From Eledone cirrhosa (taxonomy: Eukaryota): a stretch of 64,000 nucleotides of DNA. The notes below the pieces were generated by a model. The model was not told the DNA's origin. It saw nothing but the letters and a program-made list of their open reading frames with translations, and made no database searches. The stretch spans positions 22,196,001 to 22,260,000 of the forward strand of contig OZ024765.1 of NCBI GenBank assembly GCA_964016885.1, written 5' to 3'. Every line of letters starts with the position of its first letter. The first letter of the stretch is position 1. The translations under genes were made by a program, and so were the position numbers. Positions 11,282 through 61,917 of this stretch are shown one piece after another.

Positions 11282-12985
11282 CGATATTAAATAAATGGAA
11301 ACTATATTTATAAAACCATATTTATTTCATTATATATATTTCAGGGATATCATATTAACAATATGCTATGCCTTCCTCAGACAAAATACAATATAGACAG
11401 TTTTATAGATAAATAGATTTGACATACCGTTCAACATCGACTTGTATTTGAAAAGTTGATTTGGCAGTGAAAAAAATTGATTTATAATTATTTGGGAAAC
11501 TAGCCGATAAATCTTTCGATTTCTTCTTTTTATTCTTCTTTTTATTTTTATTTCTATTTCTATTTTTATTTTTATTTAAACATTCTTCATGAAAATTAAA
11601 CTACCCTAAAAGTTGATGCTCCAAATATTTCGAATAAACGTTACACTAGATAAACTTCTATATTAAATATAAGAACACATGTAGACCAAATGGGCATCCT
11701 AAACTTTTTGAAATGTTTTTTGCTAGACGCGATTTGATAAATAATTTTTAGCTTTATCTGTTTTCGACTCTGATGCTTATAATGAACTTGGCATTATATT
11801 GTCAATTAATTTCGAAGGGTTGATCTTTGTGGTTTATTTTTATTATTGTAGTATTTTCTATTTTTATTTTTAATATGTAATATTTTTTCGTAATATTTTT
11901 TAGTTTTGTATTTTATTATTATTTATTATTATTATTGTTGTTATTTTTTTGTTTCTGATATTTTTATTAATATATTGAAATCTGTTCTCTATTTCTGCTT
12001 GATAGATAATCATGTGGAGTAAAGACAAGAATAGTATTGTTAAAATTAATATAGACTCTATATATATGTGTATATATATACACGTATACTTAAATTTTTA
12101 TAGCACAATGAGAATGTTCTCCATGGAAAATTGGGGTTTGCAGGGTTGATCACGTAAACTCACATCGATGTTTGTAGTTATCATATAAACATATGAATTT
12201 TTAAAACTAAACATAAGATCATTACTTTTCACACATTATGGACACGTATCTCATTCAGGAATACTGATATTTACATTATAGTGCCTGGTTTTTATACATA
12301 CTAATACTTCTACATTAAAACATAGGGTTTTTATGCCTCGCCTATGTCTGGTTACTTTTCATTTTTCTCTCTATATAACAGCTGGTTTCTCTCCTAACCA
12401 CATATATCTCCCTTACATTAATACTAGAGCTAAATAAATAAATAAATAAATAAATGTATCATTGATACGTTTACTCAACGGATGTCCAACTACATATTTT
12501 TCTATATATATATCTATCTCTATCTATTTCCTCTCTCTATATATATCTCTCTCTGTTTCTTTACATGAAGTTCTTCTCTTTATCTATCTTTCCATCTCTC
12601 TATTTTGTTACATGCATTTCTTCTTTTTCTTCTTTTTCTTCGTTTTCTTTCTTTCTTTTCTTTCTTGCCTTCTTTCTCTCTTTTTTCTTTCTGTTTACAA
12701 TTTTTTTCACTGCCAAATCAACTTTTCAAATACAAGTCGATGTTGAACGGTATGTCAAATCTATTTATCTATAAAACTGTCTATATTGTATTTTGTCTGA
12801 GGAAGGCATAGCATATTGTTAATATGATATCCCTGAAATATATATAATGAAATAAATATGGTTTTATAAATATAGTTTCCATTTATTTAATATCGTAAAT
12901 ATACTCCAAATACTTGTTGAGTGCTTTTATATCAGTTATAAATATTTACTAGTTGTAACCCAACAATTTAAATATAACTTTCCAT
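11282..12985 (+). mobile_element. Penelope-like family B insertion with inverted ~200-bp terminal repeats
   Basis: 11282-11480 is the reverse complement of ~12700-12897. Each arm has a hammerhead. The right end continues to gagtgct, then TA. Confidence 0.75.
12791..12852 (+). ncRNA. Hammerhead ribozyme (family B); mirror copy on the minus strand at 11325-11386
   Basis: ttttgt-CTGAGGA-aggcatagcatatt(gtt)aatatgatatccct-GAAA-T-ATAT-A-TA-atgaaa; predicted cleavage after 12846. Confidence 0.8.
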
Positions 12986-14206
12986 ATATTATATATATAT
13001 ATATATATATATATATATATATATATATATATATATTATATATATATATAAATATATATTATATATATATATATATAATATATATATATATATATATATA
13101 TATATATATATAATATATATATATAATATATATATATATAATATATATATATATATATATATAATATATATATATATATATGATATATATGATATATATA
13201 TATATATATATGATATATATATATATATATATGATATATATATATATATATGATATATATATAATATATATATATATATATGATATATATATAATATATA
13301 TATATATATATATATATATATGATATATATATAAATATATGATATATATATATATATCATATATATATATGATATATGATATATGTATATATATATATGA
13401 TATATATATATATATATATATGATATATATATATATATATATGATATATATATATATATATATGATATATATATATATATATATGATATATATATATATG
13501 ATATATATATGATATATATATGTATATATGATATATATATGATATATATATGTATATATGATATATATATGTATATATGATATATATATCATATATATAT
13601 GTATATATGATATATATATGATATATATATATATATATGATATATATATATATGATATATATATATATATATATGATATATATATATGATATATATATAT
13701 ATATATGATATATATGATATATATATATGATATATATATGATATATATGATATATATATATAATATATATATATGATATATATATATGATATGTATATAT
13801 GATATATATATATATGATATATATGATATATATATGATATATAAGATATATATATATGATATATATGATATATATATATGAATTATATACATGATATATA
13901 TGATATATATATGATATATATATGATATATATATATGATATATATATATGATATATATATGATATATATATATATATGATATATATATATATATGATATA
14001 CATATGATATATATATATATGATATATATATGATATATATATATATATATATATATATGATATATAAATGTTATATATATATATATATATATATATATAT
14101 ATATATATATATATATATATATATAATATATATATATATATAATATATATAGATATATAATATATATATATATATAATATATATATATAATATATATATG
14201 TATATG

Positions 14207-14364
14207 TCTAAGGCGGGTAAAATTCCCGAGATCCATGGACGAGTTCTCTCCAGCGGTCTCTGTCCCTCATTATCCCTGCCATGTCCTGCATCTCCAACAG
14301 ACCAGTGTCTGTCCTTAGGGCATCAACATACGTTAACCTTGGTCTTCCTCTTCTAGTGTGTCCA
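14207..14364 (-). mobile_element. 3' fragment of an RTE-type LINE (same family as 42683-42945)
   Basis: GHTRRGRPRLTYVDALRTDTG...RDRDRWRELV C-terminus. Confidence 0.8.
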
Positions 14365-14551
14365 TATATATATATATATATATAATATATATATATAATA
14401 TACATATATATATAATAAATATATATATATAATATATATATATATATAATATATATATATATATATCTCTCTATATATATATAATATATATATAATATAT
14501 ATATATAATATATATATATATATATATAATATATATATATATATATATATA

Positions 14552-59100: not shown

Positions 59101-61230
59101 ACACTATATATACACTATATATATACACTATATATACACTATATATACACTATATATACACCATATATACACTATATATATACACTATATACACTATATA
59201 TACCCCATATATACACTATATATACACTATATATACACTATATATACACTATATATATACACTATATATACACTATATATACACTATATATACACTATAT
59301 ATACACTATATATATACTATATATATACTATATATACACTATATATATACACTATATATACACTATATATACACTATATATACACTATATATACCCTATA
59401 TACACTATATACACTATATATACACTATATATATATATATACACTATATATACACTATATATACGTTATATATATATACACCATATATACACTATATATA
59501 CACTATATATACACTATATATACACTATATATACACTATATACACTATATATACACTATATACACACTATATATACACTATATATATATACACCATATAT
59601 ACACTATATATACACTATATATACACTATATATATACACCATATATACACTATATATACACTATATATACACTATATATACACTATATACACTATAGATA
59701 CACTATATACACTATGTATACATTATATATACAATATATACCCTATATATACACTATATATACTATTTATACACTATATATACTATATATACACTATATA
59801 TACACTATATATACACTATATACACTATATATACACTATATATACACTATATATACACTATATATATACACCATATATACACTATATATACACTATATAT
59901 ACACTATATATACACTATATATACACTATATATACACTATATATACACTATATATACACTATATATATATACACCATATATACACTATATATACACTATA
60001 TATACACTATATATACACTATATATACACTATATATACACTATATATAGTGTATATATACACTTTATATAGTGTATATATACACTATATATACACTATAT
60101 ATGATGTTGTCCAAGGGAAAGGCAATAGTTGATACAGCTTGGGATTACAACATTATATATACATATATTATATATACATATATTATATATACAACATTAT
60201 ATATACAACATTATATATACAATATTATATATACAATATTATATATACAATATTATATATACAACATTATATATACAACATTATATATACAACATTATAT
60301 ATACAATATTATATATACATATATAATATATACAACATTATATATACAACATTATATATACAACATTATATATACAACATTATATATACAATATTATATA
60401 TACATATATTATATATACAACATTATAGATACAACATTATATATACAACATTATATATACAACATTATATATACAACATTATATATACAACATTATATAT
60501 ACATATATTATATATACAACATTATATATACAATATTATATATACAACATTATATATACAATATTATATATACATATATTATATATACAACATTATAGAT
60601 ACAACTTTATATATACAACATTATATATACATATATTATATATACATATATTATATAAACAACATTATATATACAACATTATATATACAACATTATATAT
60701 ACAATATTATATATACATACATTATATATACAACATTATATATACAACATTATATATACAACATTATATATACAATATTATATATACATATATTATATAT
60801 ACAACATTATAGATACAACATTATATATACAACATTATATATACAACATTATATATACATATATTATATATACAACATTATATATACAATATTATATATA
60901 CAATATTATATATACATATATTATATATACAACATTATATATACAACATTATATAGAACATTATATATACAACATTATATATACAACATTATATATACAA
61001 TATTATATATACAATATTATATATACAATATTATATATACATAGATTATATATACAACATCATATATACAACATTATATATACATTATATATACATATAT
61101 TATATATACATATATTATATATACAACATTATATATACAACATTATATATACATATATTATATATACAACATTATATATACACTGTATATATGCTATATA
61201 TACACTGTGTATATGCTATATATACACTAT
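56191..61230. repeat. (TACTATATA/TACAC)n field and 14-bp (ACAACATTATATAT)n array (60147-61180)
   Basis: Direct reading. Confidence 0.95.
57601..58533 (+). mobile_element. RTE LINE 3' fragment with 3' UTR and (GAT)n tail
   Basis: ORF 57601-58077 KGRLYDAC...RRLRWYGHV...GRPRKTW. Confidence 0.92.
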
Positions 61231-61354
61231 ATATGATGTTATCCAAGAGAATGTCAAAGGCCAATACAGCTTGGACCCAGTGATGTCACAACATATATAT
61301 ACACTATATATATATATATATATATATATATATATATATATATATATATATATA

Positions 61355-61917
61355 TGTAGATAAATCTACCAAGAGTTTACGGTAGTGTCCAATCCGTATG
61401 AAGAACTCAATGTAATCCGGATATCATGGAAAGAAGAGATGCAATGAAAAATCACTTTCGGTGAAAGATAAACGGAATACAGAGTCAAGATAAAATATTA
61501 AAAAAATAATGAATAAAACAATGAAACAGTTCCTTATATTAAACAAAAAAAGTTCATTATTTAACGATCGTTTCTGGGATATATATGTGTTAGAATTGGC
61601 ATGTATATTTAACAGATCTATGTACAAAATTATACAAAATTATACAAACTATCAAAATTAAATATACATACCAACTCATATATATGCCGTCTTCAGAAAT
61701 AATGATTATTTCTGAAGACGGCATATGTATGTGTTGGTATGTATATTATATTTGATAGTTTGTATAATTTTGTATAATTTTGTACATAGATCTGTTGAAT
61801 ATACATGCCAATTCTAACACATATATATCCTAGAAACGATCGTTAAATAATGAACTTTTTTTGTTTAATATAAGGAACTGTTTCATTGTTTTATTCATTA
61901 TTTTTTTAATATTTTAT
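61355..61917. mobile_element. Penelope-like family F fold-back, ~214-bp arms, 1-nt spacer at 61704
   Basis: 61490-61703 is the reverse complement of 61705-61917; terminus has hairpin ctacc/ggtag and aagaactc. Confidence 0.82.
61705..61851 (+). ncRNA. Hammerhead ribozyme with a ~114-nt stem II (family F); mirror copy on the minus strand ending at 61703
   Basis: attattt-CTGAAGA-c-ggcatatgtatgtgttgg...ctaacacatatatatcct-a-GAAA-C-GATC-G-TT-aaataat. Confidence 0.75.

Follow-up and report, generated by a model that had tools for sequence, protein, structure and literature searches.

A twin bulged hairpin marks the two insertion-end positions of Hydra-clade Penelope-like elements in Eledone cirrhosa

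Analysis of a 64,000-nt stretch of Eledone cirrhosa DNA (GCA_964016885.1, contig OZ024765.1, positions 22,196,001 to 22,260,000 of the forward strand; hereafter the window, numbered from its first letter) revealed that the motif GAGTGCT, found before TA repeats, forms the 3' arm of a hairpin with a bulge. In full Penelope-like elements (PLEs) of the Hydra clade this hairpin is present twice, as m1 and m2, between the hammerhead ribozyme and the ATG. Inserted copies end just upstream of one hairpin or the other, and inverted insertions join one end of each kind. The twin hairpin is a clade-wide cis element of a known retroelement group and apparently undescribed, while the host elements, their hammerheads, the TA targeting, the tail and the use of two internal starts are already known. 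Each hairpin probably binds the reverse transcriptase (RT) of the element and sets the start of copying about 4-10 nt upstream of itself.

The genome (3.0 Gb) is rich in TA repeats. GAGTGCT occurs 14 times in the window; all ten copies listed in a preliminary description of this DNA were confirmed, and the others (39223, 55683, 25835 and 23281) are part of other repeats and have no TA junction. Positional enrichment over shuffled sequence, on which that description had staked its case, was also found outside the window. In 59 evenly spaced 10-kb loci chosen blind to the motif, GAGTGCT lay 40-80 nt upstream of 25 of 746 TA junctions, 18 of these at 45-70 nt. At the same junctions no copy lay at 100-160 nt, the reverse complement was seen 5 times, and dinucleotide shuffles (n = 100) gave a mean count of 0.66 and a maximum of 3. 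Genome-wide, the pattern of motif, 38-68 nt and TA run had 33,912 forward-strand matches versus 163 and 1,047 for reversed-pattern controls; the reverse-strand count, and probably one control too, is too high, since a site can have several TA end points. The enrichment of GAGTGCT before TA junctions is real.

Upstream of most TA-linked copies of the motif lies ACTC, complementary to GAGT, and the two arms enclose a variable stem whose 3' side bears a bulge of 1-2 nt, giving the form RCTC-Y..loop..R-TH-GAGY followed by RCT. In most units m2 is located about 12-40 nt before the first ATG. An alignment of 55 homologous proteins led to 78 metagenomic loci, of which 44 had at least 100 nt upstream of the open reading frame (ORF). 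The core GAGYRCT was present within 200 nt upstream in 34 of these 44 Hydra-type loci, and 23 contained two cores (0.06 expected per search window, from the frequency in ORFs). We collected 49 unique full hairpin instances, for which the 5' arm was demanded by the search and the other features were free. The pair above the 2-nt bulge was Watson-Crick in all 49 (35 C-G, 14 T-A), and the bulge read TA, TC or TT. With a 2-nt bulge the apical stem averaged 2.3 bp, versus at most 0.86 in 500 shuffles. The arms covary, GCTC/GAGC replacing ACTC/GAGT, with GTTC/GAAC also seen; in m2 of family A, the family at window positions 12700-12985, both arms have changed together to GCTC/GAGC. As an automatic alignment of 51 hairpins misaligned the 5' arms, pairs were counted by anchoring both arms instead. 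Among six published Hydra consensus excerpts, three (coral, sea cucumber) also show the hairpin clearly, and Hydra-1_Ajap has two tandem copies before the ATG. Folding z-scores of single units ranged from -3.3 in family A to -0.2 in one metagenomic unit. The ACTC/GAGT arms resemble stem III of some Hydra hammerheads, a likeness that was set aside because neither GAA nor CTGANGA flanks the hairpin.

The coding elements behind these repeats were reached through family A, of which 40 near-identical copies were scored among 839 candidates; a TA or TA-like repeat follows the tail in 28 of 30 family A loci. At loci L061 and L090 the repeat runs past its usual end into a second hairpin and a 736-amino-acid ORF. 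The L090 protein, P0001, combines in this single ORF a YRDD core RT and, at the C terminus, a GIY-YIG-type endonuclease (NIVY..YVG region). It has RWR (RWK-like), SDKT (DKT in place of DKG) and a CxCX5C linker, read as CNCRDRSKC; its endonuclease lacks the CCHH motif and, by eye, a cysteine pair in the GIY-YIG core. These marks, with a by-eye comparison to a published alignment, place P0001 in the Hydra clade. Its predicted structure (predicted local distance difference test, pLDDT, 89.6) has TERT as closest solved fold (E 1.6e-9, template modelling score 0.36). Owing to a long 3' untranslated region (UTR) the L090 unit measures about 3.8 kb and exceeds the <3 kb usual for Hydra PLEs, a length that the accessible text of Craig et al. 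(2021, PMC8557442) gives as a general tendency and not as a strict criterion.

All seven window families that were traced have coding parents whose Hydra-clade proteins are 39-96% identical to P0001, so that the families, taken as unrelated in the preliminary description, belong to one clade. Genome-wide, the m1+m2 tandem pattern gave 1,011 matches versus 4 in the control; 29 of 30 inspected loci lead into a Hydra-type ORF, and in 22 of 30 loci examined the ATG is preceded at 234-239 nt by a predicted hammerhead core. When the spacer between m1 and m2 was set longer or shorter, the search had 314 and 297 matches, respectively (controls 1 and 4), many of them non-coding hammerhead repeats or composites, and non-coding hammerhead repeats with both hairpins kept were found. 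A young intact ORF is available, the first 150 residues of which have 150 or more matches at 95-100% identity. Two arrays were seen besides. One, at L315-L320 (C1:130.88-130.89 Mb), is a tandem whose non-coding unit of 1,322 nt contains hammerhead, m1, m2 and an intact long-range helix (described below), a retrozyme-like partner that has many copies; the other, at L272-L275 (C1:14.24-14.25 Mb), is a long tandem of a 58-nt unit made of one hairpin and its spacer.

Other parts of the signature first proposed for these families held only partly. A hammerhead upstream of the motif was seen as canonical cores at, for example, 12797 and 28878, but none was found before 22452, 53851, 54544 and 55225; at 22452 there is a mutated variant core. 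AATAAA between hammerhead and motif was present in 5 of 5 units of this genome but in only 3 of 17 relatives, and the small hairpin before the TA run in 7 of 7 own units (3.6 expected) but in 11 of 21 relatives (11.0 expected), which is chance. AATAAA and the pre-TA hairpin were therefore rejected as clade features, being traits of this genome's families only. The complementary upstream arm, the downstream twin hairpin and the short ends right before m1 were absent from the preliminary description.

In eight families the median distance from motif to TA varied from 37 to 67.5 nt, while the median distance from the end to m2 was constant at 6-10 nt (TA microhomology not yet allowed for); a ninth family (composite parent L295, end-to-arm distance 42 nt) was left out because it combines two adjacent insertions, and no parent was available among the fetched loci for 22 of 135 solo ends. 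The 45-70 nt between motif and TA are the m1-m2 spacer, i.e., the Penelope 'tail'. As the junction falls 6-10 nt before the second hairpin copy, the motif does not set it. Ends were then mapped in 77 loci (824 kb) picked without reference to the motif, among them the window and its two neighbours. These loci contained 1,416 TA-junction flanks, and 66 of these were placed on 58 filtered parents, all with a hammerhead. Of these ends, 64 lay 0-14 nt 5' of a hairpin arm, where 12% would be expected under uniformity, and the remaining two were outside by 1-2 nt. Thirty ended before m1 (short end, median 7 nt) and 34 before m2 (long end, median 8 nt). Each of the 20 inverted pairs, of which the window has five, joined one m1 end and one m2 end (p ~9e-7 if ends were independent). 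Metagenomic records contributed nine same-locus ends 0-8 nt before an arm, and the metagenomic pair of L158 breaks down just after the motif.

Two variants from outside the parent set, at 61402 and 33390/33506, obeyed the same rule. The variant motifs gagttct (61402) and ttgagcc (33522) listed earlier are both present, but the latter has no TA after it and is the m2 of a tandem-unit variant pair. In the 61402 variant the 5' arm lies 77 nt upstream, and the opposite short arm ends at about 61917, 4 nt before ACTC; a coding parent was not found by a DNA search that did not return even the window itself. The palindromic insertion that holds it (61355-61917) has a hammerhead-like core with a very long stem II, and copies of the palindrome are 100% identical in L271 and 98% in L094, just beyond the window.

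The preliminary description had read the motif as a cis signal for RT initiation, which is still the best reading, but also as a ruler that fixes the start 45-70 nt downstream of itself. Although the enrichment before TA junctions agrees with such a ruler, the spacing to TA depends on the family and that to m2 does not, half of the ends lie upstream of m1, and no ends occur at that distance after m2, with only four short exceptions; in family A, the youngest, none was found about 46-76 nt downstream of m2. The ruler is thus largely refuted and scarcely credible. Two further observations concern the copies themselves. Some 5' or inversion junctions (L114, L119, L132, L218) start a few bases from a start site, as if a full round on a circular template had ended there. 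Truncation at m1, sought as a sign of bound protein, was seen in 3 of only 10 copies truncated at the 5' side.

Two starts that bound a tail have a precedent. According to the accessible text of Frangieh et al. (2024, PMC11167929), the RT of PAc, a Poseidon-clade element of Anolis carolinensis, starts at two internal sites bounding the tail, needs RNA downstream of the starts and nicks both strands in AT-rich DNA. Since this matches in the two tail-bounding starts, the required downstream RNA and the cutting of both strands, it supports reading the two end classes as two starts. PAc differs from the Hydra elements in its clade, in starts inside the ORF and in an AC-rich stem-loop with an undefined binding motif; the same text describes no repeated hairpin and no pairing of strand to site. 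It also bears on the idea that each hairpin serves in RNA processing, as a small ribozyme or nuclease site that cuts the transcript just upstream so that RT starts at new 3' ends. Such cleavage would fit ends that lie almost equally far 5' of a conserved structure whose unpaired bases are invariant. However, PAc initiates internally on uncut RNA (PMC11167929), and the strict one-of-each pairing is simpler if one RNA holds both sites. Neither in the window nor in seven parent loci did an Rfam covariance model match over the motif; the window gave chance matches to TA-rich microRNA models, and no hammerhead model scored there. We therefore regard cleavage as quite improbable.

The 25 nt that follow m1 and the 25 nt that follow m2 gave further support for a folded unit, their pairing being family-specific. 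In 28 non-redundant units out of 60, cognate segments reached -12.0 kcal/mol versus -6.0 for non-cognate ones, and none of 10,000 permutations was as strong; in 20 of the 28 the cognate partner was among the best 5% of 25-mers of its own locus. The predicted long-range helix often extends to the start codon, which, with m2 so close to the first ATG, would fit hairpins that are promoter or translation-control elements of the ORF, the ends following only nearby TA-like sequence. Yet non-coding repeats keep both hairpins, and TA-like words are found throughout these AT-rich repeats while nearly all mapped ends (64/66) fall at two sites. A role in expression control alone is therefore very unlikely.

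A second TA-targeting, hammerhead-bearing PLE family served as a control. With a CX4CxxC linker and the CCHH motif it appears Neptune/Nematis-like by published features. Its two ends lie 57-59 nt apart inside the ORF start, as the ends of PAc do, and it has no twin-hairpin motif, showing that the hairpin is clade-specific. On the minus strand of L018, from about 4243 onward, each Neptune/Nematis-like end is followed by a short TATCG...AGATA segment, which hints at an analogous doubled signal. In the window, a 24-nt minisatellite of 28 copies (47405-48079, minus strand) is a tandem of the 24 nt preceding the short end of this family and is directly followed by its tail, the sequence at 48080-48270 being unrelated; repeated priming at one start site is a possible origin. 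Further copies of the minisatellite-associated family lie at 40213-40400 and in L002, L018, L022 and L047.

The Hydra clade comprises C-terminal-endonuclease PLEs (Craig et al., 2021, PMC8557442). As far as the accessible text of that paper goes, our elements agree with it in RWR/DKT, the CxCX5C linker without CCHH, the hammerhead in the pseudo-long terminal repeat (pLTR), the (TA)n targets, the partial-tandem and inverted structures and the one-sided tail. The tail measures about 60-100 nt here versus 30-40 nt there, and the text ascribes it to the endonuclease, with no mention of hairpins, their pairing or a link to ends. The accessible parts of PMC3846280 contain no description of the twin hairpin either, and none of the hairpin pair was found in the literature searched, subscription papers and Repbase/Dfam notes being outside the search.

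Taken together, the endonuclease would nick both strands of the (TA)n tract. One nick would prime cDNA just before m2 and yield the long end with m1 and spacer as tail, and the other would prime just before m1 and yield the short end; a short TA-like sequence at each start may offer microhomology to the target. Since each nicked strand would be primed at a different hairpin site, inverted arms would carry the tail on one arm only. The family-specific helix is predicted to hold both sites in one fold, and two protein copies would take part, as suggested by the dimer predicted for PAc in the accessible text (PMC11167929) together with the pairing rule. A copy that ends before m2 would lack the full signal, and its re-mobilization would need a tandem or circular transcript. 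Circular templates have been proposed for tandems of retrozymes and minimal PLE hammerheads (Cervera and de la Pena, 2014, PMC4209133; 2020, PMC7229834; bioRxiv 10.64898/2026.07.22.740005), and the same sources, in their accessible parts, derive non-coding hammerhead repeats from pLTRs and presume that these use PLE enzymes. Such repeats, where both hairpins are kept, would be moved in trans. The accessible retrozyme texts name no shared cis element beyond the hammerhead, and the twin hairpin is a candidate for one in Hydra-dependent repeats.

A more specific proposal, to which we give somewhat less than even credence, is a telomerase-RNA-like module in which two RT-binding hairpins and the covarying helix place two RT active sites that prime both nicked TA strands from one RNA. 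If true, the module would yield inverted arms with a one-sided tail, explain the need for tandem or circular transcripts, identify retrozymes mobile by the Hydra RT and provide a transferable tag for target-primed insertion into TA repeats.

A signal acting in DNA has to be weighed against RT binding. The GIY-YIG endonuclease could see the hairpins in single-stranded cDNA or a duplex intermediate and cut a few bases upstream, thereby resolving both insertion ends at the same positions. The accessible texts lend this some weight, as the tail results from resolution by the endonuclease according to Craig et al. (PMC8557442) and the D. virilis endonuclease, as cited by Frangieh et al. (PMC11167929), needs tail sequence in DNA; our strand comparison, given below, showed no preference for the RNA sense. 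On the other hand, a loop that varies from a few nucleotides to about 70 nt, while the bulge stays at 2 nt, fits a duplex site poorly, and in the single biochemical system, PAc, tail ends are RT start sites (PMC11167929). We consider action in DNA unlikely, and RT binding with a start just upstream of each hairpin the better account.

Several results weigh against that account. The role of the hairpins in binding and priming is putative. Pairing was equal in sense and antisense (-12.0 versus -12.3 kcal/mol), leaving room for a signal in single-stranded DNA, the cognate helix partner ranked best in only 16 of 28 units, the helix was significant in only 2 of 8 non-coding candidates, and whole-unit folding z averaged only -1.2. 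Ten of the 44 metagenomic relatives lacked the core, and three of the six published consensus excerpts had no clear hairpin. A tail can form without the hairpin motif, as in the Neptune/Nematis-like family. A first mapping with 95 unfiltered parents, whose flanks held simple repeats and other elements, had only 74 of 255 flanks in the zones, and TA microhomology blurs the start positions. Finally, the palindrome at 53807-54592 has the tail on both arms, an exception to the rule of one long and one short end. There, a common short repeat is inserted at the pre-m1 site of both arms, and the hammerhead core of the family is non-canonical.

Conserved RNA structures that recruit an RT and fix where copying starts or stops are known from the 3' stem-loops of stringent pairs of long and short interspersed nuclear elements (LINEs and SINEs) and from the RT-binding and template-boundary elements of telomerase RNA. 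The stem-loops of LINEs, which are copied, sit upstream of the start, whereas the Hydra hairpins lie downstream of their own start and are doubled; the likeness to both systems is functional only, with no sequence match. It speaks for RT binding that TERT, the solved fold closest to P0001, is an RT positioned by structured RNA. PLEs are the sister group of telomerase, and their choice of start site and the one-sided tail on inverted arms have long been open. With the twin hairpin, both start sites now have a defined sequence and structure shared across the clade, and a strict one-of-each rule holds per insertion, which makes start-site choice directly testable with short RNAs and the intact young ORF. 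It also offers annotators a tag by which short non-coding repeats embedded in TA, tens of thousands in number, can be linked to their autonomous partner.

The hairpins and insertions located in the window are listed in Table 1.

Table 1. Hairpins and associated insertions in the window.
Feature	Position	Strand	Description
m1, family A	12903..12925	+	ACTC arm, 3-bp apical stem, TT bulge, GAGT-GCT
Insertion, family A	11282..12989	+	from the L090 coding element: entire 3' UTR, hammerhead (core 12797), m1, tail
Short inverted arm, family A	~11282-11480		ends 7 nt before m1
m1, family B	21354..21376	+	insertion 20510-21437; short end 20509, long end 21437
m1, family E	22452..22478	-	variant hammerhead core upstream; coding parent L252
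m1, family D	28729..28771	-	long apical stem; hammerhead core 28878; coding parents L226/L246
Variant m1	33145..33171	-	GTTC/GAAC arms, TT bulge; on long arm of hammerhead repeat
Variant m1	33390..33416	+	GTTC/GAAC, 5-bp apical stem, TT bulge; short arm ending 33877 stops 7 nt before
Variant m2 (33522 of the preliminary description)	33506..33530	+	long arm ending ~33061 stops ~6 nt before this unit position
m1, family C	38630..38657	-	palindromic insertion 38575-38996, one long and one short end
m1, family G, mutated 5' arm	40550..40573	-	insertion 40491-40851, one long and one short end
m1, family C	41421..41448	+	insertion 41072-41502, one short and one long end
m1, family F, weak apical stem	53851..53893	-	left arm of palindrome 53807-54592
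m1, family F	54508..54550	+	right arm of palindrome 53807-54592; coding parents L241/L271
m1, family C	55204..55231	+	insertion 54982-55285, one short and one long end
Variant m1	61402..61485	-	ACTC-TGTA...TACA-TT-GAGT, 70-nt apical insertion; folding z -3.07

The window also contains other mobile elements. LINE-type RT ORFs lie on the plus strand at 4938-8432, 17672-20183 and 22866-25714, two of which have a PHD finger either within the RT region or after it. An internally deleted mariner-like transposon (HTH_48/HTH_32) is located between TA runs at 30241-31137, and tRNA-like heads of a SINE-type repeat were detected on the minus strand at 29598-29655 and 55833-55896 (Rfam tRNA, 30-31 bits).

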